Source of the DNA: an uncultured Thiohalobacter sp.
GTDB lineage: Bacteria; Pseudomonadota; Gammaproteobacteria; DSM-19610
Direction: 5' to 3'
Assembly (NCBI GenBank): GCA_964433205.1
Contig: CAYSRA010000003.1
Location: 670 to 64,669, forward strand
DNA length: 64,000 bases
Each line of letters starts with the position of its first letter. Position 1 is the first letter of the stretch. Shown here piece after piece: positions 1 to 8,830 of the stretch. The translations under genes and the position numbers were made by a program. Under the pieces are notes generated by a model. It ran no database searches, had not been told where the DNA came from, and was given only the letters and a program-made list of their open reading frames with translations.

Positions 1-752
1 TTGATGGCGCTGTTGCTGCCGGCGTTGTCCCAGCGCGAGAACACGACTTCGCCGCTGCCCAGCACCACCGGGTCGAGGTCATGGCTCTGGTTGAAGGAGA
101 CCTGCCGGATGTTTTCCCGTGCCTGGTCGATGATGTGCAGAACCAGTGCCGGCTCGTTTTCATTCTCGTCGAGCGCGGCAAACTGCGGTTTGCCTTCGTC
201 CACGAGTATGGCGCCGGCTGCGCGCTGACGGGTGGAGGAAAAAATGATGCGGCCGTCGGCGAGGTAGTGCGGCGCGACGTCCTGCCCGGCTTCGGCGATA
301 ATGTCGGAGGCGATGACCCGTGTCAGGGTGTCGGTGGCGATTTCGTATTCCCACAGGTTCCAGGTCGGCTGGTCTTCCGGCGCGGCACCCTCTATATCCG
401 GCAGGCGCAGGGCGAACAGCAGGCGTGTGCCATCAAAGGAAACCTCTACATCCTTGACGTCGCCCATGCCACCCGTCAGTCCGGCGGTAATATTGCGTTC
501 ACGGGCCACCGGTGATGCAAGATCGCGGTAGATCAGATCGCCGCCCGGTTGAAAGCGGGTCGGCTCGCGCACGTCGGCGGTGTCGGTTTCCGGCACCGGC
601 TGCCTGACATAGGCAATACCGAAGTCCTCGACCAGCGGGTCAGGGTCGCTCGAGCTGCCGGTTCCGCCGCCACAGCCGCCCAGCAGCAGGGCCGCGAGCA
701 CGACTGCAATGCGGCGCTCTACCAGTGATCTTGGCCGGGACTGACGGGGCAT
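1..752 (-). CDS. Lipoprotein with TolB/PD40-like beta-propeller repeats; 5' part only, gene runs off the left edge
   Basis: Absent from the ORF track because it has no stop in the window. Reverse-strand ATG at 752-750 gives MPRQSRPRSLVERRIAVVLAALLLGGCGGG (lipobox LLGGC). I translated the frame by hand and it stays open to position 1. Contains DGTRLLFAL, NLWEYEIATDTLTRV and HYLADGRIIFSSTRQR blade-like motifs. Confidence 0.75.
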   Translation of the reverse strand, partial: MPRQSRPRSLVERRIAVVLAALLLGGCGGGTGSSSDPDPLVEDFGIAYVRQPVPETDTADVREPTRFQPGGDLIYRDLASPVARERNITAGLTGGMGDVKDVEVSFDGTRLLFALRLPDIEGAAPEDQPTWNLWEYEIATDTLTRVIASDIIAEAGQDVAPHYLADGRIIFSSTRQRAAGAILVDEGKPQFAALDENENEPALVLHIIDQARENIRQVSFNQSHDLDPVVLGSGEVVFSRWDNAGSNSAI

Positions 753-1194
753 GTGTTTCTCCAGAGATGTTCGTGTTGCGCCAGGTTATATTTCTTCAGG
801 ACTGCGTTTATCAAGCAAATATCGGGCCGGCCATTAGGCGACTGTTGCGGCCTGATTGACTGTTTATTGAGGCTTTTTGCTGTTTCCGTGCCCCGTTTTG
901 TCGTCTTGTGCAGACACTGTCGGCTCATGGAGACGACACGCCTGATCCAGCGTCGCCCGCAATATAGCCAGCCATGCAGCGGGGAAACTGCGATCCAGAT
1001 CACACCGTGGCAATTTTATTTCGCTACCTGAACAGTGAGTTAAACCGCGCCGGACAATTGCCGCCAAGTGTGGACTGGTTCACAGCACTGTGGTCCCCCG
1101 GGGTCTACATTGCGCCAACAAGGCGTGGAACCAGGCTGGTTCGGTAATTGCTAGACACGGGATCAGGGAAAATACCAACTAAAGGGGCGTCTCA

Positions 1195-2418
1195 ATGTTT
1201 TCGACGTACGCACAACAGCAGGACAGGGCTTGGGGGAACGGGAAGGCAGGCTGGCGCGGCGTTCTGGCCGCGGTCGTGGTCGCGGTGCTGGTTGCTTCGA
1301 CGGCGATGGCGGGCGATCTTGAACGCAAGCAGGCCAAGCGCATTCATGATCGTCTGACAGGTGTTCCCCCGACGCCTGCCGTACTGTCAGCGATGGAAGA
1401 CCGGATTGTGGGCGGCGATGCAGTGGCCGCGGCGTTATTTGCGATAGATCCTGGCAGCAATCCGCGTGCCTTTAACTTCTATAACACTACGCTGAAGAAC
1501 TTCGCGACGCCCTGGACTAACGAGGCGCAATCGGTTTTTGATTCACTCAACGACTATAGCGCGACTGTCATCGGTATGATTCGTGACGATGTGCCGTTCA
1601 ATACACTGCTGTCCGCCGACCTGGTCTACGTGGGCAATGGTTCGATTTCCGGCGTGGCGCCCTATTCTCCCTCCAGCAACACGCATTACCAGAACCTTGA
1701 GGATCTGAGTATTGATCTGAGCGATCCGACCAAACTGGTACCTGATCTACAGTCGGTGCGAAACGGTATCCCGGTTGCCGGTGTTGCAGGGGTCATAACA
1801 ACGCGGGCCGCTGCGCAGGCTTTCTTTATAGACGGCACCAACCGGGCCATGTTCCGTTTCACCGTGCTGAACCACCTCTGCACTGACCTGGAACAACTCA
1901 AGGACATCACCCGTCCGGCGGACCGTATTCGCCAGGACGTCAGTCGCAGTCCGGGCGGAGACAGCCGGATCTTCCTCAATTCCTGCGTTGGTTGTCACAC
2001 CGGCATGGACCCCATGACGCAGGCCTTCGCCTATCACAACTACGACGAGAGTCTCGGGCGGATGGTTTATACCCCGGGCCAGGTGCAGCCGAAGTACCTG
2101 ATCAATGCGGAGAACTTCGAGTACGGCTACGTGACCACCGACGACCGCTGGGACAACTACTGGCGCAGTGGCCAGAATGCGGCGCTGGGCTGGAGCAGCA
2201 GTTTGCCCGGCGGTGGAAACGGCGCGGCTTCGCTGGGTATGGAACTCGCCAACAGTAACGCGTTTGCCAGTTGCCAGGCCCGCAAGGCCTATCGAACGGT
2301 GTGCCTCAACGAACCCGACCAGACGCAGCTGGATACGCTGGTCGGCGTGTTGACCGGACAGAACTACAACATGAAGCAGGTGTTCGCTGTTGCAGCTACC
2401 CAGTGCATGGGCAACTAG
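1195..2418 (+). CDS. Secreted CxxCH protein, DUF1585/DUF1588-like; function unknown
   Basis: 407-aa ORF with AAGGGG SD 7 nt upstream. Sec signal VLVASTAMA-GD. One haem-c motif in the context NSCVGCHTGMDP (Cys codon at 1984), resembling the CxxCHxxxDP signature of planctomycete-type PSD families. Confidence 0.8.
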   Translation: MFSTYAQQQDRAWGNGKAGWRGVLAAVVVAVLVASTAMAGDLERKQAKRIHDRLTGVPPTPAVLSAMEDRIVGGDAVAAALFAIDPGSNPRAFNFYNTTLKNFATPWTNEAQSVFDSLNDYSATVIGMIRDDVPFNTLLSADLVYVGNGSISGVAPYSPSSNTHYQNLEDLSIDLSDPTKLVPDLQSVRNGIPVAGVAGVITTRAAAQAFFIDGTNRAMFRFTVLNHLCTDLEQLKDITRPADRIRQDVSRSPGGDSRIFLNSCVGCHTGMDPMTQAFAYHNYDESLGRMVYTPGQVQPKYLINAENFEYGYVTTDDRWDNYWRSGQNAALGWSSSLPGGGNGAASLGMELANSNAFASCQARKAYRTVCLNEPDQTQLDTLVGVLTGQNYNMKQVFAVAATQCMGN

Positions 2419-2436
2419 GCAGTGACGGGCGAGGGG

Positions 2437-5004
2437 ATGACTATGAGCGCGTTTTCAAAGAGTGTGCGATGGGACGAAATGTCCGGCCTGGCCGGTGCGT
2501 TGCGGGCGGGTGCGGTGCTGGCATTGTTGTTTGTGCTGTCAGCCTGCGGCGGTGGTGCGGAGACCAGTTCCAATCCTCCGACATCGAACGATGGTGCCGT
2601 GAATGCATCGAGTTATACCGGGCCGGTCGCGCTGACCAGCGATATCCGCGCATTCCAGGTTAATGTCTGGGAGCCGCTGCGGGCATCGAATCGCTGCGGC
2701 GCCTGCCACGTGCCGGGTATCCAGTCGCCAATGTTCGTTCGTCAGGATGACGTCAACCAGGCCTACGCGGATGTTGCCGGGCTGGTCGACCTGGACGCGC
2801 CGGCCAACTCACGCCTGGTGACCAAGGTGGGCGGCGGCCACAACTGCTGGCTGACCAGTAATGCCGCCTGCGCCACGATTATCCAGAACTATATTGCAAA
2901 CTGGGCCAATGGTGTCTCGGGCGGGCAGCGTGAAATCCAGCTCAGCGCTCCGCTGGTACTCAAGGACCCGGGTGCAACGAAGAACTTTCCCGCGTCCTCG
3001 GCGGATTTTGCGACCACCGTGTGGCCGGTGCTGACCGCTAACTGTTCGGGCTGTCACGTCGAGTCATCGCCCACCGCCCAGTCGCCGTTCTTTGCCAGCC
3101 CGGTCGTCGACGATGCCTATGAGGCAGCAAAGTCGAAGATGGATCTCAATGATCCCTCCAACTCGCGCCTGGTGCTTCGGTTGCGCAACGAGTTCCATAA
3201 CTGCTGGACGGCGAGTTGTACCAATGACGCGGACGTGATGGAAGCCGCGATTACAGCGTTTGCGGGGACAATCTCGCCAACGGTGGTCGACCCCGCGCTG
3301 GTTATCAGCAAGGCACTCACGGTGGCGGACGGTGTGGTCGCCAGCGGTGGCAACCGCTATGAATCGGACGTGATCGCGCTGTACGAATTCAAGTCCGGGT
3401 CCGGCAACGTGGCGATCGATTCCAGCGGTGTCGAGCCGGCGCTGCACCTGACGCTGAGCGGTGACGTGAACTGGGTCGGCGGCTGGGGCATCGAGATCGT
3501 CAACGGGCGCGCCCAGGGTTCGACCACGGCCAGCAAGAAGTTGCACGACCTGATCAAGGCGACCGGCGAATATACGATAGAGGCCTGGGTTGCGCCGGCC
3601 AACGTCACCCAGGAAGGTCCGGCGCGCATCGTCAGTTACTCGGCCGGAACCGGGGTGCGGAACTTTACGCTCGGGCAGACGCAGTACAATTACGACTTCC
3701 TGCAACGCTCCAGTACCACCGACGCGAACGGCGAGCCGGCACTGTCTACCGCCGACGCCGACGAGGACCTGCAGGCGACCCTGCAGCACGTGGTGGTGAC
3801 CTTTGACCCGATCAATGGACGCAGGATTTACGTCAACGGTGTTTTCACCGGCGATGTCGATCCGGTGCCGGCAGGCAACCTGACGGAATGGGACGATACC
3901 TTTGCGCTTGTGCTAGGCAATGAAGTATCCGGTGACCGCCCGTGGGCCGGCCAGATACGCATGCTGGCGATCCATAACCGGGCGCTGACCCAGGAGCAGA
4001 TCCTGCAGAACCTCGATGTCGGCGTCGGTGAGAAGTTCTTCCTGCTGTTTTCCATTGGGGATGTGATTGCGCTGCCCGACAGTTATATCGTATTCGAGGT
4101 CAGCCAGTACGACAGTTACAGTTACCTGTTCAACAAGCCGTTCTTTATCAACCTCAATGCGGATGTGACGCCGGCCAGTATCCCGCTGCAGGGCATGCGC
4201 ATCGGTATAAACGGCAAGGAAGCGGCGGTCGGCCAGGCCTGGACCAACCTGGATACCGTGATCGGCGGTGTCGCCTACGACCCATCGACCGGCCAGGTAT
4301 TGTCGACACGGGGCACCACGATTGCGCTGGAGAACGGCCCGTCAGCGGACGAGTTCTTCCTTACCTTCGAGCGCCTCGGTACACAGACCCATGTGTTTAC
4401 CGAGAACTCGCCGCTGACGCCGGCGCCGCTGCCGACACCGCCTGCCGTGTCGGAGGTCGGGGTCCGTACCTTTGACGAAATCAACGCCAGCATGGCGGCA
4501 TTGACCGGCGTGGATCCGACGCTGGTGCAGGCAAGTTTCCAGACCCTGCGCCAGCAACTGCCCGCCGTTGAAAACCTGGATGGTTTCCTGTCGGCGCACC
4601 AGATGGCGATTGCCCAGTTGTCCATCGAGTATTGCAGCGCGCTGGTCGATGACTCGGGGTTGCGGAGCGGCTTCTTCGGCACATTTGATTTTTCCCAGGA
4701 TGTCGCGACAGCGTTCGGCACGGGGGATTCGACCCAGAAGAACCTGATCGTGAACGCGCTGTACGACGGGATGGTGGGTCTTGCGGAAGGGGGGCGCAGT
4801 GACCTGGTCGATGCGCCGACGCGCGAGGAGGTCAAGACCGAGTTGATCGGCTATGACCTGGGTGGTGCGCAGGTGAACAGCAACAGTCTGTTTGACCGGC
4901 TCACATCGGCCTGCCCGACGGGCTGCGATCAGACGCGTACCCGCGCCGTCGTCAAGGCGATGTGCGGTTCGGTACTGGGCAGTGCCGCAGTACTGGTTCA
5001 ATAG
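2437..5004 (+). CDS. Lipoprotein with two CxxCH modules and a LamG (concanavalin-like) domain; function unknown
   Basis: 860-aa ORF in the track from GTG 2422; ATG 2437 or 2443 sits behind GAGGGG. Lipobox LLFVLSAC. CGACH at 2695 and CSGCH at 3043. LamG-like stretch EYTIEAWVAP...HVVVTFDP..GRRIYVNGV...GQIRMLAIHNRALT. Confidence 0.8.
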   Translation: MTMSAFSKSVRWDEMSGLAGALRAGAVLALLFVLSACGGGAETSSNPPTSNDGAVNASSYTGPVALTSDIRAFQVNVWEPLRASNRCGACHVPGIQSPMFVRQDDVNQAYADVAGLVDLDAPANSRLVTKVGGGHNCWLTSNAACATIIQNYIANWANGVSGGQREIQLSAPLVLKDPGATKNFPASSADFATTVWPVLTANCSGCHVESSPTAQSPFFASPVVDDAYEAAKSKMDLNDPSNSRLVLRLRNEFHNCWTASCTNDADVMEAAITAFAGTISPTVVDPALVISKALTVADGVVASGGNRYESDVIALYEFKSGSGNVAIDSSGVEPALHLTLSGDVNWVGGWGIEIVNGRAQGSTTASKKLHDLIKATGEYTIEAWVAPANVTQEGPARIVSYSAGTGVRNFTLGQTQYNYDFLQRSSTTDANGEPALSTADADEDLQATLQHVVVTFDPINGRRIYVNGVFTGDVDPVPAGNLTEWDDTFALVLGNEVSGDRPWAGQIRMLAIHNRALTQEQILQNLDVGVGEKFFLLFSIGDVIALPDSYIVFEVSQYDSYSYLFNKPFFINLNADVTPASIPLQGMRIGINGKEAAVGQAWTNLDTVIGGVAYDPSTGQVLSTRGTTIALENGPSADEFFLTFERLGTQTHVFTENSPLTPAPLPTPPAVSEVGVRTFDEINASMAALTGVDPTLVQASFQTLRQQLPAVENLDGFLSAHQMAIAQLSIEYCSALVDDSGLRSGFFGTFDFSQDVATAFGTGDSTQKNLIVNALYDGMVGLAEGGRSDLVDAPTREEVKTELIGYDLGGAQVNSNSLFDRLTSACPTGCDQTRTRAVVKAMCGSVLGSAAVLVQ

Positions 5005-5023
5005 AGAAACGGGGAATACTAAA

Positions 5024-6628
5024 ATGGCCAAGCGTACAAAAAACCTGCGTCCTGACGACCCGCTGTATCATCTGAACCACTCCCGGCCAGTGAACCGGCG
5101 GGATTTCCTCCGCCAGGGTTTCATTTCCGGTGCGGGTATGGTGATGGGCGGCTCTATCTTCAGCCTGTTCGCTAACCCGCGCGCTGCCCAGGCAGCATTG
5201 TCGTCCGACCTGGATTCGCTGGCGACCAGTATCGGTTGCTCGCTCGGCGGCGTGGGTGGCGGCAAGATCCCGTTTATCTGTTTCGATCTTGCCGGCGGCG
5301 CCAACATTGCCGGCTCCAATGTGCTGGTAGGCCGGCAGACGCAACTCGACCTGCTGAGTACCGCCGGTTACAGCAAACTGGGCCTGCCCGGCGACATGAT
5401 TCCCGGTGGCACGGAAACCGCGCCGACGGCGACCAGTAATGGCGACTTCACCGATACCTCGCTGGGTCTGGGTTTCCATTCAGACAGCGCATTTCTGCGC
5501 GGCATCCTTGAGCGTGCCGGTGCAAGGGCGACCAATATCAATGGTGCTGTCATTCCTGCGCGGTCCGATAATGATACCGGCAACAATCCGCATAATCCCA
5601 TGTACGGCATTGCCAGGGCGGGTGCGGCGGGTGGCGTCGTGACGTTGATTGGTTCCCGGAACTCGGATTCCGGCGGCAACTCCATGGCGCCGGCGAATAT
5701 GATGAATACCGAAATCCGCCCGACCAAGGTGGATCGTCCCAGCGATGTGACCGGTATGGTGGATACCGGCAATCTGACCGGCATACTCAGCGATCCCGCT
5801 GACGTGGTTGCGGTCATGGAGTCCGTGGCCCGTATCAGCAACAGCAAGCTCGGTTGGGCCGACACGGGGCTGGCGGCGACCATAAATACCGGTGCGGATG
5901 CCGTGGTCAAGGACCTGGTGCGCTGCGGTTACCTGAAGGCGGCGGATATTGCCGACCGGTTTGCCGGCGTCGATATTGATCCCAGTCTCGACGGGGACAT
6001 TGTCGATGGCGTCGATCCCGCCAACCCGGCACAGGGTATATTCACGCAGGCCGAGTTTGATGGTGACCGGGAATTCCGCAAGACGGCGTCGGTGATGAAA
6101 ATGGTCATCGACGGACACGCTGGCGCGGGCACCATTGCCATGGGCGGTTATGACTACCATACCGGTGACCGCAGCACAGGCGAGTTGCGCGACCTGCGCG
6201 CCGGACGCTGCATGGGTGCCTGCCTGGAGTATGCGGCCCGGCGTGGCGTGCCGTTGATGCTGTATGTGTTCAGCGACGGTTCGCTGGCCAGCAACGGCAC
6301 CGTTGACAACAGCGTCGATGGCCGGGGCAAGGGTGTGTGGACCGGCGATAATTCATCCACTGCGGCGTCTTTCTTCCTGGTATACAGCCCCAACGGGCCG
6401 GTGACGGCGCGCAAGCAACAGATCGGCTACTTCCGCGCCGACGGTTCGGTCGAAACCGCGTCCAGTCCTGCGGCAAACAACGTCAATCTGCTGGTTGAGA
6501 CCGTTATCCTGAACTACATGTCACTGAACGGGGATTCCGCGGGCTTCAGTAGCCTGTTTAGCGGTTTCGGTAACCCACCCAGCGCCTCGCTGATCAATTC
6601 GCTGCTTGCCTTCGATACGTTGCCCTGA
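5024..6628 (+). CDS. Tat-exported DUF1501-like (sulfatase/phosphatase-fold) protein; function unknown
   Basis: The track ORF starts at 4892 inside the previous gene. ATG 5024 gives MAKRT...NRRDFLRQGFISGAGMVMGG...PRAAQA-A, a twin-arginine signal. FICFDLAGGAN and GGYDYHTGD resemble DUF1501 signatures. Confidence 0.75.
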   Translation: MAKRTKNLRPDDPLYHLNHSRPVNRRDFLRQGFISGAGMVMGGSIFSLFANPRAAQAALSSDLDSLATSIGCSLGGVGGGKIPFICFDLAGGANIAGSNVLVGRQTQLDLLSTAGYSKLGLPGDMIPGGTETAPTATSNGDFTDTSLGLGFHSDSAFLRGILERAGARATNINGAVIPARSDNDTGNNPHNPMYGIARAGAAGGVVTLIGSRNSDSGGNSMAPANMMNTEIRPTKVDRPSDVTGMVDTGNLTGILSDPADVVAVMESVARISNSKLGWADTGLAATINTGADAVVKDLVRCGYLKAADIADRFAGVDIDPSLDGDIVDGVDPANPAQGIFTQAEFDGDREFRKTASVMKMVIDGHAGAGTIAMGGYDYHTGDRSTGELRDLRAGRCMGACLEYAARRGVPLMLYVFSDGSLASNGTVDNSVDGRGKGVWTGDNSSTAASFFLVYSPNGPVTARKQQIGYFRADGSVETASSPAANNVNLLVETVILNYMSLNGDSAGFSSLFSGFGNPPSASLINSLLAFDTLP

Positions 6629-6637
6629 GTGCCGCCA

Positions 6638-7357
6638 TTACGACCGGTCCTGACGCGACCGGAGTTCCGGGGTGCGCGCAATCACCCATGCTTCCACCTG
6701 CGTGGCGCCGGCCTGTTTGAGTACGCGCGCCAGCGCATTGAGTGTGGCGCCCGTCGTTACCACATCGTCGACCAGAATTACCCGCCGGGCACTGACGTCG
6801 TGCCGGACCCGAAACGCATTGTCGAGGTTGTGGCGACGGGTCGTTGCCGACAGCCTGGACTGCGCGGAGGTATGCCGGGTTCGCGCACAGCAGCGCGCAT
6901 CGATCTGGTATCCCCGCCGTAGCATCGGCCGGGCAATTTCCAGCGCCTGGTTGAACCCACGTTCGCGCAGCCGGCGCGGGTGCAGGGGCACGGGTATCAG
7001 CATTGCTTTGTCTCCTTCGGGCACATGTTCCGCCAGCAGCCGCCCGAGCATTTTCGCCAGCGTCAGTTGCTGGTGAAACTTGATGTTGCGAATCCACTGG
7101 TCGACGGGTGCACGGTAATCGAACAGGGCATGGCAGCCGTCGAGAAATGGCGCTGTTTGCCGGCACGCTGCACACTGCGCCGGGGCGGCGTCAACGGGGC
7201 GGGGTTTGGCACAGGTCGGGCAGCCCGGCGCCAGCCAGGGGAGTTCCTGGTAGCAATCCGGGCAGATCGCAAGTCCGTTGTGTGTCGGCGCCCGGCATAA
7301 CTCGCAGTACATCGGGAACAGCCACGAGTGTGTGTTTTTTAGCCATTTGTAAACCAT
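6638..7357 (-). CDS. comF: ComF family protein (amidophosphoribosyltransferase-like)
   Basis: N-terminal Cys-rich finger CELCRAP...CPDCYQEL...CPTC and PRTase motif VILVDDVVTTGATL. Start is ATG 7357 (MVYKWLKN) or GTG 7396. Confidence 0.85.
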   Translation of the reverse strand: MVYKWLKNTHSWLFPMYCELCRAPTHNGLAICPDCYQELPWLAPGCPTCAKPRPVDAAPAQCAACRQTAPFLDGCHALFDYRAPVDQWIRNIKFHQQLTLAKMLGRLLAEHVPEGDKAMLIPVPLHPRRLRERGFNQALEIARPMLRRGYQIDARCCARTRHTSAQSRLSATTRRHNLDNAFRVRHDVSARRVILVDDVVTTGATLNALARVLKQAGATQVEAWVIARTPELRSRQDRS

Positions 7358-7380
7358 AGACAACCTTCCCTGGTTGACAG
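7347..7380. promoter_or_regulatory. Candidate BirA (bioO-type) operator
   Basis: TTGTAAACC (7347-7355), 16 nt, GGTTGACAG (7372-7380). Imperfect inverted repeat matching the TTGTAAACC/GGTTTACAA half-sites recalled for gammaproteobacterial bio operators. Confidence 0.6.
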
Positions 7381-7403
7381 AGGGACGTCGTGCCACGCAT
7401 AGT
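7374..7403 (+). promoter_or_regulatory. Candidate sigma70 promoter of the bio operon
   Basis: TTGACA (7374-7379), 18-nt spacer, CATAGT (7398-7403). The -35 lies inside the right operator half-site. Confidence 0.4.
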
Positions 7404-7440
7404 TTCGCCCCCGAAACCGCAGTCTATCCTATTGACACCA

Positions 7441-7866
7441 ATGACCGAATCCCGACCTCCCGCCGATCCGCAGGCCAGTCCTGCGCAGCTGTACGGGCGC
7501 CGCGCACGCCGGGCGGCAGCGTTGTTCAACTACGGCAACATTCTGGCCATTCTGGTGCCGATTCCGCTGGGCATGCTGTGGCTCGGCCTGTCGATGCTGG
7601 TGTATGCCATGAACCGCCATCACCCGAACGAGAAAGTCGGGCATTACACCCAGCAGGCAGCCTACCGCTTTTACGGCGTGACCGGGTTTTTCGTGGCTGC
7701 GGCGACCTTTATTCCAGGCGGCGGCTGGACCTATTACCTGATTGCGTGGGCGCTTGCCGCCGCTGTCCTCATCCCCTGGTCGGTCATGGATCTGCTGCGT
7801 ATCTACCGCGATACCTGGTCCGACATGGAACTACCCGTGGAGCATCATGAATCACACAGCCACTAG
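7441..7866 (+). CDS. Small integral membrane protein (about 3 TM), unknown function, first cistron of the bio operon
   Basis: ORF 7390-7866. ATG 7441 lies downstream of the predicted promoter. Hydrophobic segments [39 protein letters not shown] and [18 protein letters not shown]. Overlaps the bioB start by 20 nt. Confidence 0.6.
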
Positions 7867-8830
7867 TGAACAGGCCGGTCCGAACACCGGCACCCCGCGT
7901 TTTGACTGGAGCAGCGACGAAATCGAGGCGCTGTTTGAATTGCCGTTCAACGACCTGCTGTTCCGTGCCCAGCAGGTGCACCGCGCACATTTCGATCCCA
8001 ACGAGGTTCAGGTCAGTACCCTGCTGAGCATCAAGACCGGCGGTTGCCCCGAGGATTGCGGTTACTGCCCGCAGAGTGTGCACCACGAAACCGCCGTCGA
8101 GCCGGAGAAACTGATGGATGTCGAGGCGGTGGTGGACGCGGCGCGCGCAGCCAAACAGGCCGGCGCGAGCCGTTTCTGCATGGGTGCGGCCTGGCGCAAC
8201 CCGCGCGGAAAGAACTTCGAGCGGGTGCTGGAGATGGTCGAACGGGTGCGCGAGGAGGGACTGGAAACCTGCATGACGCTGGGCATGCTGGATGATGAGC
8301 AGGCCGGGCGTCTGGCCGAGGCGGGGCTCGACTACTACAACCACAATCTGGACACCTCGCCGGAGTTCTACGGGGAAATCATCACCACCCGCACCTACCA
8401 GGAGCGGCTGGACACGCTGATGCGCGTGCGTGATGCCGGCATCAATGTCTGCTGCGGTGGCATTGTCGGCATGGGTGAAGGCCGCGCCGACCGTGTATCG
8501 CTGCTGGAACAGCTGGCGAAGCAGAAACCGCACCCGGACAGCGTGCCGGTGAACATGCTGGTGCGTGTCGAAGGCACGCCGCTGGATGATGCCGACACCA
8601 TCGATCCGTTCGAGTTCGTGCGCACGCTGGCGGTGGCGCGCATCCTGATGCCGGCATCGCACGTCCGATTGTCGGCGGGTCGCGAGCAGATGAGTGATGA
8701 GATGCAGGCGCTGTGCTTCATGGCCGGCGCCAATTCCATTTTTTACGGCGAGAAACTGCTGACCACCGGCAATCCCGAAGCCGACCACGATCGCCGGCTG
8801 TTCGAGCGACTGGGCCTGCGCCCGGTCTGA
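7847..8830 (+). CDS. bioB: Biotin synthase
   Basis: Radical-SAM motif [13 protein letters not shown] and [11 protein letters not shown] 7847 (MNHTATSEQ) gives a normal-length N-terminus; the track ORF starts upstream at 7742. Confidence 0.95.

Follow-up and report, generated by a model that had tools for sequence, protein, structure and literature searches.

The first 6,628 nucleotides (nt) of a 64,000-nt stretch of DNA from an uncultured Thiohalobacter sp. (contig CAYSRA010000003.1; the whole stretch that was analysed is referred to here as the window) carry four genes, and the product of each gene has an export signal. We refer to the divergent lipoprotein gene as G1 and to the three plus-strand genes, in their order, as G2, G3 and G4 (Table 1). 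In this study, these genes are described as part of a nine-gene cluster that is conserved in at least several hundred marine gammaproteobacterial species. The four open reading frames (ORFs) and their export signals had been named in a first-pass annotation of the sequence, and direct translation located all of them where that annotation had placed them. The G1 leader ends in a lipobox (...AALLLGGC-GG), the G2 leader is a Sec signal that ends in ...VASTAMA-GD, the G3 leader contains a further lipobox (...LFVLSAC-GGG), and the G4 leader, RPVNRRDFLRQG...AQA, is a twin-arginine signal (NRRDFLRQG...AQA). The close packing of G2–G4 as an operon divergent from G1 was also borne out, with intergenic gaps of 18 nt between G2 and G3 (3 nt with the GTG start) and 19 nt between G3 and G4. 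The spacer between the two arms, which had been described as approximately 440 bp long and lower in GC, is indeed poorer in GC than G2–G4 (53.4% vs. 60.9%).

Table 1. Features of the locus, in window coordinates.
Feature	Position (nt)	Strand	Remarks
G1	1..752	-	Start at 752; open to the left edge of the window, 250 residues visible, no stop
Divergent intergenic spacer	753..1194		442 bp, 53.4% GC
Sigma-54-type -24/-12 promoter-like element	1137..1152	+	TGGTTCGGTAATTGCT; ends 42 nt upstream of the G2 start codon
G2	1195..2418	+	407 residues; ORF listing and direct translation
G3	2437..5004	+	855 residues; alternative GTG start at 2422
G3 haem modules	2695-2709 (CGACH), 3043-3057 (CSGCH)	+	CxxCH...H-N-C-W form
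G3 LamG domain	3529-4002	+	Laminin_G_3
G3 C-terminal domain	roughly 4114-5001	+	Approximately 300 residues; no family match
G4	5024..6628	+	534 residues; ORF listing and direct translation
G4 D377-Y-H379	6152-6160	+	Candidate metal/nucleophile site, with D88, S155, D184, D418 and D442

A profile of G4 was used to fetch 80 genome loci with flanks of 10 kb, and the neighbours found in a Chromatiales locus served as probes for the left arm. The recurring layout consists of genes for a DUF3570 protein, a DUF4266 protein, a thioredoxin, an outer-membrane protein (OMP) barrel, an SH3 plus OMP barrel and G1, all of which are read leftward, followed by G2, G3 and G4, which are read rightward. The first-pass annotation had named linkage across the Gammaproteobacteria as a test of its cluster, and G2, G3 and G4 are colinear in every one of the 80 loci whose contig reaches far enough. 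G1 lies divergently upstream in 55 loci and is relocated in one more (L038), and approximately four of the loci whose left flank is long enough lack it. The gene order in L038 is rearranged; the whole G1 arm has moved as a unit and still lies beside G4-ApbE. Both barrels occur in 56 loci, and the thioredoxin was detected in 53 and DUF4266 in at least 49. For DUF3570, a strict tblastn filter gave 38 loci and a looser map gave more, although this count is limited by the 10-kb flank. The Pfam matches of the arm proteins in relatives are strong for DUF3570 (E = 1e-49), DUF4266 (5e-23), AhpC-TSA/Redoxin (2e-29) and ApbE (2.5e-83), and the barrels match OMP_b-brl, one of them with SH3_3. At least 15 of the 80 loci have an adjacent ApbE gene, often after G4. 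Therefore, the four genes of the first-pass annotation are real, but the unit to which they belong comprises nine genes and includes a flavinylation/thioredoxin module. The window almost certainly lacks the left arm only because it starts inside G1; the loci L006, L010, L012 and L043 of the window's own clade have both the arm and the comF/bioB/bioF right flank of the window.

The cofactor and thiol motifs of the cluster are conserved as well. The DUF4266 lipoprotein ends in ...EGARGAEG-x-GGGCGCN, and its CxC is present in 54 of 54 loci (the L006 copy is located at 757-978 on the minus strand). The thioredoxin, which is of the TlpA type, has CxxC in all 53 of its loci and WCxPC in 52 of them. 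Site 1 of DUF3570 reads D-x-x-[ST]-[SG]-A-S in 14 of 14 orthologues, mostly as SSAS. The haem motifs of G1 (two), G2 (one) and G3 (two) are invariant across the loci, fragments apart. One locus was found per sampled genome and no expansion was seen among the 80 loci; the cluster is apparently a single-locus feature of each genome. The carriers include the sulfur oxidisers Thiohalobacter, Thiogranum, Sedimenticola and Thiodiazotropha as well as the ordinary heterotrophs Microbulbifer, Paraglaciecola and Alteromonas, and Gilvimarinus is also among the cultured carriers, some of which are genetically tractable.

G1 had been regarded as a PD40-type propeller lipoprotein. The lipobox and the propeller stand, and in addition the orthologues of G1 are HzsA-like dihaem proteins. 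The lipoboxes of G1 (L-G-G-C) and G3 (L-S-A-C) each follow a hydrophobic stretch, as is required of a lipoprotein, and the lipobox Cys is invariant in the orthologues of both (C37 in alignment A3 and C26 in alignment A4). Because a Gly follows this Cys in both proteins, sorting to the outer membrane is expected by the E. coli rule. The 250 residues of G1 in the window are 80% identical to the N-terminus of an 878-residue orthologue from L006, a locus of a Thiohalobacter metagenome-assembled genome (MAG), and this orthologue matches HZS_alpha (PF18582; E = 1.3e-17) and PD40 and contains two CxxCH motifs. HZS_alpha was found in all 26 of the G1 orthologues (the L006 value being the best), and PD40 was found in 25 of the 26 full-length orthologues (best E = 3.6e-11), whereas the window fragment alone gave a sub-threshold PD40 match (E = 0.054). 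Two CxxCH motifs are present in 56 of 56 G1 orthologue loci. Searched against the PDB, the G1 family profile matched HzsA (5C2V_A; E = 3.3e-15) over four collinear segments, namely the propeller, the middle domain with the first CxGCH, the second CxxCH and the C-terminal helix. The G1 orthologues are thus HzsA-like; the window holds only the first 250 residues, and the defining domains lie beyond its edge. As judged from its orthologues, G1 is homologous over its full length to hydrazine synthase alpha, has two predicted haem sites and is not merely a propeller. After the first CxxCH, the G1 family lacks a Tyr at +4 and has a His at +8 that is invariant. We take the haem ligand of HzsA to be a Tyr at +4 after its first CxxCH, and G1 differs in this respect.

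G2 is predicted, from its leader and its CxxCH, to be a Sec-exported periplasmic monohaem cytochrome c. The haem motif CVGCH (nt 1984-1998) lies within CVGCHTGMDP, the signature that had led to the naming of G2 as a DUF1585/DUF1588 protein. Forty G2-family sequences all share CxGCHxGMDP and four additional Cys, one CxxCH is present in G2 of 68 of 68 loci, and the family gave at least 8000 matches in a word-indexed search. The DUF1585/DUF1588 naming holds at the level of the family but not for the window copy, which scored 12.4 bits against PSCyt3/DUF1588 (E = 0.19, residues 262-285), below the gathering score of 27 bits (PF07627). Weak PSCyt3/DUF1588 matches at the CxxCH occur in 27 of the 40 family members (best E = 0.0037), and none of them reaches the cutoff. 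PSD2/DUF1585 (PF07624; gathering score 25.8 bits) matched the C-terminus of 10 of the 40 members (best E = 8e-6), with P0235 just over the cutoff at 25.9 bits and P0219 at 24.4 bits, and gave no match in the window G2. The PSD2 matches sit C-terminal of the PSCyt3 matches, which is the canonical planctomycete-type order. None of the 40 members matched PSD3, PSD4 or PSD5 at E ≤ 1, and the domain set of a Group III PSCyt protein was not found. For both the window G2 and G4, Pfam and NCBIfam gave no match even at E = 0.1. No PDB relative of G2 was found by sequence, by family profile or by Foldseek with a structural model, in which the haem region is disordered. Taken at the family level only, these profile matches describe G2 as a remote, truncated relative of the PSCyt3/PSD2 lineage.

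The description of G3 as a lipoprotein with a LamG domain and two CxxCH motifs was confirmed. Laminin_G_3 (PF13385) covers residues 365-522 of the window copy (83.6 bits, E = 2e-23), was found in 33 of 33 G3 orthologues, and is the only domain that Pfam and NCBIfam recognise in the four window proteins. Each of the two haem modules consists of a CxxCH followed, after approximately 44 residues, by H-N-C-W, and both modules are invariant (C87, C90, H91 and H135; C203, C206, H207 and H254). The invariant His of H-N-C-W is a candidate for the distal haem ligand. Two CxxCH motifs are present in G3 of 71 of 76 loci, and the other five are fragments. The G3 family profile retrieved nothing useful from the PDB. 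Weak Pfam matches to Cytochrome_CBB3, Cytochrom_C and Haem_bd occur among the G1 and G3 orthologues. Haem attachment in G1–G3 is predicted from invariant CxxCH motifs in exported proteins. Comparisons of G2 with G3 and of G3 with G1 by hhalign revealed no homology beyond the CxxCH and the lipoprotein leader; therefore, the cytochromes G1, G2 and G3 represent separate families.

G4 is the most conserved gene of the cluster, with 61-91% identity across gammaproteobacterial orders in the 80 loci. Its family comprises at least 8000 homologues, which form approximately 1500 clusters at 50% identity and come from at least 577 species-representative genomes. The leader has the motif, the hydrophobic stretch and the AxA site that define a substrate of twin-arginine translocation (Tat), and export by this route is predicted. 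Across 83 family members with 28-91% identity to the window copy, the RR pair (nt 5096-5101) does not vary, and in a PDB profile search the leader aligned with the leaders of the Tat substrates NosZ, PaoA and DyP. The n-region of the leader (window 5024-5110, plus strand) is itself conserved as D/x-H-x(3-4)-[STN]-R-R-[DE]-F-L, and H19 is 97% conserved among relatives with 27-61% identity. This region looks as if it serves to dock a dedicated Tat chaperone, for which no candidate gene was identified. The strings FICFDLAGGAN and GGYDYH are present as reported, but the DUF1501/DUF1552-like identity that had been read from them was not supported. The Pfam models DUF1501 (PF07394) and DUF1552 (PF07586) matched none of 38 close and none of 13 distant G4 members at E ≤ 1, and no other Pfam family matched any of these sequences. 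A tblastn search of plasmids for a bridge between G4 and DUF1501/DUF1552 returned nothing. Pfam, NCBIfam and PDB sequence searches gave no match to G4, and its PDB profile matches were restricted to Tat leaders.

Several G4 orthologues (P0007, P0021, P0044 and others) are named 'general secretion pathway protein GspF' in NCBI/UniRef. No Pfam scan supports this label, which looks like a propagated misannotation. In L028 (433-4826), a hydrothermal MAG locus without the G1 arm, G2–G4 adjoin MSHA/type-IV-pilus-like genes (secretin, PilN and an AAA_22 ATPase), and pilus-type adjacency of this kind may be the source of the 'Gsp' misnaming.

The AlphaFold2 model of G4, which was built from 38 sequences, has a pLDDT of 65 and a pTM of 0.69. 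When it was compared with the PDB by Foldseek, the top 50 of 50 matches belonged to the alkaline-phosphatase superfamily (E = 0.012-0.31, TM-scores 0.1-0.3), including alkaline phosphatases, sulfatases, cofactor-independent phosphoglycerate mutases, NPP/autotaxin and EptC. Ten residues are invariant among the 83 family members: R25, R26, G91, G92, D184, D377, H379, D418, G419 and D442. Furthermore, D88, S155, N188, Y378 and H19 are conserved in approximately 90% or more of the members, and H152 is conserved in 84% of 79 distant representatives. In the model, the conserved Asp and His residues are located at predicted beta-strand ends and S155 at a helix start. Alkaline-phosphatase-type sites have two metals, a Ser nucleophile and residues at strand ends, and the conserved Asp, His and Ser residues of G4 in the model resemble such a bimetal site. 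The sole alignment of G4 with PhoA, which is not significant, places VFSD418G on the zinc-ligand strand VTAD-H of PhoA with equal spacing. On the evidence of the model, the fold of G4 is probably, rather than certainly, alkaline-phosphatase-superfamily-like. An Fe-S cluster in G4 was also considered and was rejected because the cysteines are not conserved.

In five distant loci (L085-L089), G4 is 28-32% identical to the window copy, and the GC contents are 34-52%. L085, L087 and L088 contain an operon that encodes a G2-like protein, a small lipoprotein resembling the C-terminal part of G3, a Tat-exported G4-like protein, and a lipoprotein with haem modules. The G2-like proteins are monohaem and match G2 at E = 1e-55 to 1e-73, and the haem-module lipoproteins have one to three CxxCH motifs and match the haem modules of G3. 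The remaining two loci lie on short contigs. L086 covers G4, a match to the C-terminal domain of G3, and a dihaem module protein; in L089, the C-terminal half of a G3-like protein (G3 residues 463-855) occurs in fused form directly upstream of G4. Three of the five distant versions lack the LamG domain, and the contig of a fourth, L086, stops inside the upstream gene. The flanks of the distant loci hold unrelated housekeeping genes and no G1 or DUF3570 arm. These comparisons describe G2, the domains of G3, and G4 as an ancient core. Because the distant relatives encode the parts of G3 as separate genes and often lack LamG, we read the G3 of the window as a fusion and LamG as a lineage-specific addition. 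The G1/flavin arm is likewise a frequent but non-obligatory partner because it is absent from L022, L027, L028 and the distant loci. Of the five distant core operons, two (L087 4210-5841 and L088 1366-3111) are preceded at 1-4 kb by a MotA/MotB stator pair; this adjacency may be shared synteny between related organisms.

The spacer at 753-1194 has blocks that are conserved in an alignment with L006 and L008, and it is presumably the site of the promoters for both arms. No sigma-70 consensus promoter was found in it, the number of terminator-like sites did not exceed chance expectation, no tandem repeats were found, and an Rfam scan of window positions 1-8000 detected no riboswitch, small RNA or other Rfam family. 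The sigma-54-type element is matched by a strict TGG-N8-TTGCW at the same position in L005, L008, L011, L012, L013 and L043, which are loci of the Thiohalobacter/Thiogranum clade. Approximately 10 of 70 loci have sigma-54-type matches, compared with an expectation of approximately 1.6; these matches are restricted to certain clades, and the loci are not phylogenetically independent. A consensus-grade TGGCAC-N5-TTGCA occurs approximately 330-346 nt upstream in L075, L079 and L082, which are Woeseiaceae- and Steroidobacteraceae-type loci. No gene for an enhancer-binding protein was seen near the sigma-54-type element.

Downstream of G4, the window continues with a comF-like gene, a 158-residue ORF, bioB and bioF, and its closest relatives are Thiohalobacter-like MAGs; the gammaproteobacterial core-genome setting described in the first-pass annotation is therefore correct. 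The 158-residue ORF (window 7390-7866, plus strand) lies between the comF-like gene and bioB and overlaps a 5' extension of the bioB ORF. Five to six loci of the window clade, including L005, L006, L007, L012, L017 and L043, have it in the same position, and its copy in L001 gave no Pfam match. A different block often follows G4 in other loci, with genes for p181, three TPR proteins (695, 929 and 220 residues), p98, ExbB, ExbD and ExbD. This block is found in L002 (13287-21389) and in approximately 24 of the 80 loci (e.g., L019, L024, L040 and L060), is absent from the window, and resembles a TonB/Tol-like energising system.

Kamneva et al. (2012) described DUF1501 proteins with Tat signals from the Planctomycetes, Verrucomicrobia and Chlamydiae (PVC) that are linked to PSCyt1/PSCyt2/PSD1 cytochromes, sometimes with Laminin_G_3. 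At their most complex, these clusters comprise four genes, one of which encodes a PSCyt1/WD40 protein, and the authors proposed a function in electron transport, with the Tat protein acting as an enzyme (PMC3542564). PSCyt3-type genes are paired with DUF1552 and not with DUF1501 (He et al., 2017; PMC5615132). In Group III, PSCyt3 always occurs with PSD4 and often with PSD2, PSD3 and PSD5, and the DUF1552 gene is adjacent; PVC PSCyt genes also lie near sulfatases and carbohydrate-binding modules (CBMs) (PMC5615132). We found no functional assignment of PSCyt/PSD proteins in the literature since 2018. The likeness to such planctomycete pairs that the first-pass annotation had pointed out is real in part, since pairs with LamG or propeller partners are documented in PVC genomes. 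As in those modules, a Tat protein is tightly linked to exported CxxCH proteins, Laminin_G_3 is sometimes fused to a cytochrome, four-gene versions with a cytochrome-propeller protein exist, and G2 has a remote similarity to PSCyt3 and PSD2 in the canonical order. However, G4 is recognised by neither partner family, DUF1501 or DUF1552; G2 lacks PSD3, PSD4 and PSD5; and the haem modules of G3 are neither PSCyt1 nor PSCyt2. In addition, PVC genomes contain tens of paralogues, whereas each sampled gammaproteobacterial genome has one locus, and the cluster described here is tied to a flavin/thioredoxin arm and an HzsA-like protein. By its position, G4 would correspond to DUF1552 rather than to DUF1501. 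The best reading is that the cluster is a gammaproteobacterial counterpart of the PVC PSCyt-DUF1501/1552 modules in its architecture; membership by sequence fails, except for the marginal PSD2/PSCyt3 similarity of G2.

The left arm of the cluster is homologous to a published flavinylation module. Méheust et al. (2021) reported that ApbE flavinylates DUF3570 at [S/T]GA[S/T] motifs and described a recurrent module for extracytosolic electron transfer that consists of ApbE, DUF3570, DUF4266 (which has a CXC at its C-terminus) and a thioredoxin-like protein, in some cases together with DsbD (PMC8238504). In the published view, the CXC motif of DUF4266 cycles redox, and the function of the module 'remains uncertain'; the main text of that paper makes no mention of G1–G4 neighbours (PMC8238504). 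The left arm in relatives of the window shares DUF3570, DUF4266 with a C-terminal CxC, a thioredoxin-fold protein and, often, ApbE with this module. It differs in its neighbours, an HzsA-like cytochrome and two OmpA-like barrels, in its divergent orientation relative to G2–G4, in having a thioredoxin that matches AhpC-TSA/Redoxin and not PF13899, and in having a motif that is mostly SSAS, with one site conserved and no DsbD in the flanks. With regard to HzsA, a 2025 survey counted more than 600 HzsA-like proteins outside the anammox bacteria, none with a known function, and discusses only the HzsA-like genes that adjoin beta-gamma homologues (PMC12758564). G1 orthologues share the full domain order of HzsA (5C2V) but, unlike HzsA, G1 is a lipoprotein, has no beta or gamma partner genes and has other residues around the first haem. 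No homologue of hydrazine synthase beta or gamma is adjacent, the profiles of G2 and G3 do not match the chains of 5C2V, and a counterpart of the hydrazine synthase complex was not recovered. The alkaline-phosphatase superfamily is the only one matched by the alpha/beta core predicted for G4, and the Asp...Asp-x-His...Asp residues at predicted strand ends are spaced like the Zn ligands of PhoA; however, G4 has no significant sequence or profile similarity to that superfamily, and where the superfamily has a His after the last Asp, G4 has a Gly.

Four alternative explanations of the cluster were weighed. The locus may be a plain planctomycete-type pair of a PSCyt/DUF158x protein and a DUF1501/DUF1552 protein that has spread into the Gammaproteobacteria, in which case the G1/flavin arm would be an unrelated neighbour. 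This would account for the succession of PSCyt3 and PSD2 matches in G2 members, for the Tat signal of G4, which many DUF1501 proteins share (PMC3542564), and for the LamG and propeller partners, which are known from PVC modules. We nevertheless consider it unlikely; G4 and 51 relatives give no DUF1501/DUF1552 signal at E ≤ 1, G2 lacks the PSD4 that always accompanies PSCyt3 (He et al., 2017) and is sub-threshold in the window, and an arm that is adjacent in 55-56 loci of several orders and moves as a block is hard to fit with an unrelated neighbour. Hydrazine-synthase-like nitrogen chemistry, in which G1 would carry out a reaction of NO, hydroxylamine or ammonia with G2–G4 as helpers, draws on the collinearity of G1 with HzsA, including the CxGCH region of the catalytic haem, and on the presence of HZS_alpha in 26 of 26 orthologues. 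It is the least likely of the four, and very improbable, because beta-gamma partners are missing, the residues after the first CxxCH differ from those of HzsA, and the core exists without G1. Moreover, neither G2 nor G3 matches 5C2V, the carriers are aerobes or sulfur oxidisers, and the more than 600 HzsA-like proteins outside anammox bacteria have no known function (PMC12758564).

The other two alternatives place hydrolysis by G4 at the centre. G4 may be a phosphatase- or sulfatase-like esterase that scavenges nutrients, with LamG binding a polymer and the haem proteins as accessories for sensing or oxidant protection. PhoX and PhoD are Tat-exported, as G4 is predicted to be; the structural matches of G4 are to alkaline phosphatase and sulfatases, a LamG domain is present, and the marine carriers include polysaccharide degraders. 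The proximity of PVC PSCyt genes to sulfatases and CBMs (PMC5615132) points in the same direction. However, five invariant haem sites, a flavin module and a thioredoxin represent a heavy outlay for an accessory role, 61-91% identity of G4 across orders is unusual for a scavenging enzyme, and neither the single locus per sampled genome nor the absence of LamG from three of five distant versions is easily reconciled with this explanation, which we judge to be quite improbable. The Gly-rich Cys tail of DUF4266 is, in our view, reminiscent of the swinging arm of SoxY, and G4 presumably of the Tat-exported SoxB. By analogy, this tail might have a covalent-carrier role instead of, or besides, redox cycling: the DUF4266 Cys arm would bear a covalent intermediate (e.g., sulfur), the cytochromes would load or oxidise it, G4 would hydrolyse it off, and the thioredoxin would re-reduce the arm. 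The ...GGGCGCN tail is found in 54 of 54 loci, always with the thioredoxin beside DUF4266, G4 has a predicted hydrolase-type metal site in addition to its Tat signal, and many of the carriers are sulfur oxidisers. Yet Pfam and NCBIfam scans revealed no Sox similarity, many other carriers are ordinary heterotrophs, the distant core operons lack DUF4266, and the published view is that the CXC cycles redox (PMC8238504); a carrier system of this type therefore appears rather more doubtful still than scavenging.

We favour the reading that the cluster encodes an envelope redox-enzyme system in which G4 would be a metal-dependent catalytic subunit, up to five c-type haems would be carried by G1–G3, and a thiol/flavin relay would be added in this lineage; our confidence in this reading is evenly balanced. 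We infer that the proteins associate and that an electron path connects them. Thiol exchange (thioredoxin and DUF4266) and the DUF3570 flavin would carry reducing equivalents between the outer membrane and the inner-membrane pool, and the c-type haems of G1, G2 and G3, up to five in number, would then take them further. G4 would be the catalytic centre, a hydrolase or transferase that cleaves or transfers an ester-type group (phospho-, sulfo- or similar), and the haem proteins would hold its substrate or oxidise or reduce it. LamG may help to hold the substrate in this lineage. The proposal of the first-pass annotation that the system binds and processes a polymeric or surface substrate is still speculation, and LamG is absent from most of the distant versions. 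Assembly would take place at the periplasmic face of the outer membrane or in it, a location that is suggested because the system has two lipoproteins with a Gly after the lipid-modified Cys and three beta-barrels.

Several observations weigh against this redox-enzyme reading. To our knowledge, no enzyme of the alkaline-phosphatase superfamily works with cytochromes, and the combination of redox chemistry and hydrolysis has no direct precedent. The fold of G4 depends on one medium-confidence model (pLDDT 65) and on weak Foldseek matches (E ≥ 0.012), none of which falls below E = 0.001 against the PDB, and hhalign comparisons of the G4 profile with GpmM and PhoA of E. coli were not significant (probability of approximately 1%). 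Rather than carrying electrons, the haems could have a structural or sensory role. The only component with biochemical data is DUF3570, whose flavinylation was demonstrated in another organism, and the strict [S/T]GA[S/T] motif is present in 4 of 14 DUF3570 orthologues, with SSAS or TSAS in the rest and a second site that is not conserved. The left arm and ApbE are not inside the window, and no ApbE, DsbD, TPR or ExbBD was found elsewhere in its 64 kb. Finally, the G1/flavin arm is not obligatory, since it is absent from the 10-kb flanks of L022, L027 and L028 and from the distant loci.

The finding itself is real and is explained by no characterised pathway; profile, PDB and Foldseek searches matched none. 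The new element is the coupling of three orphan modules in one conserved divergon. Each belongs to a set of 'dark matter' proteins, namely the planctomycete-type cytochromes and their Tat partners (2004-2012), the ApbE-DUF3570 module (2021), and the HzsA-like proteins (2025). Because versions of all three sets occur together in this divergon, we argue that they are able to act in one process. A stronger version of the redox-enzyme reading, which we hold only tentatively and with more doubt than confidence, is that the cluster is an undescribed envelope machine, common among marine Gammaproteobacteria, in which a flavinylated outer-membrane barrel, a thiol relay and three unrelated c-type cytochrome families (HzsA-like, PSCyt3-like and a new type with the CxxCH...HNCW module) serve a Tat-exported enzyme of the alkaline-phosphatase type, G4. 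If this is true, the machine would perform a redox-coupled reaction without known precedent in the alkaline-phosphatase superfamily, and a solution in these bacteria would also explain the PVC PSCyt-DUF1501/1552 modules, a puzzle of approximately twenty years, and the orphan HzsA-like proteins. G4 represents a very large family for which neither Pfam nor NCBIfam has a model. Knockouts and biochemistry are harder in the Planctomycetes, which have dozens of paralogues, and the apparently single-locus version in culturable bacteria opens the way to both.

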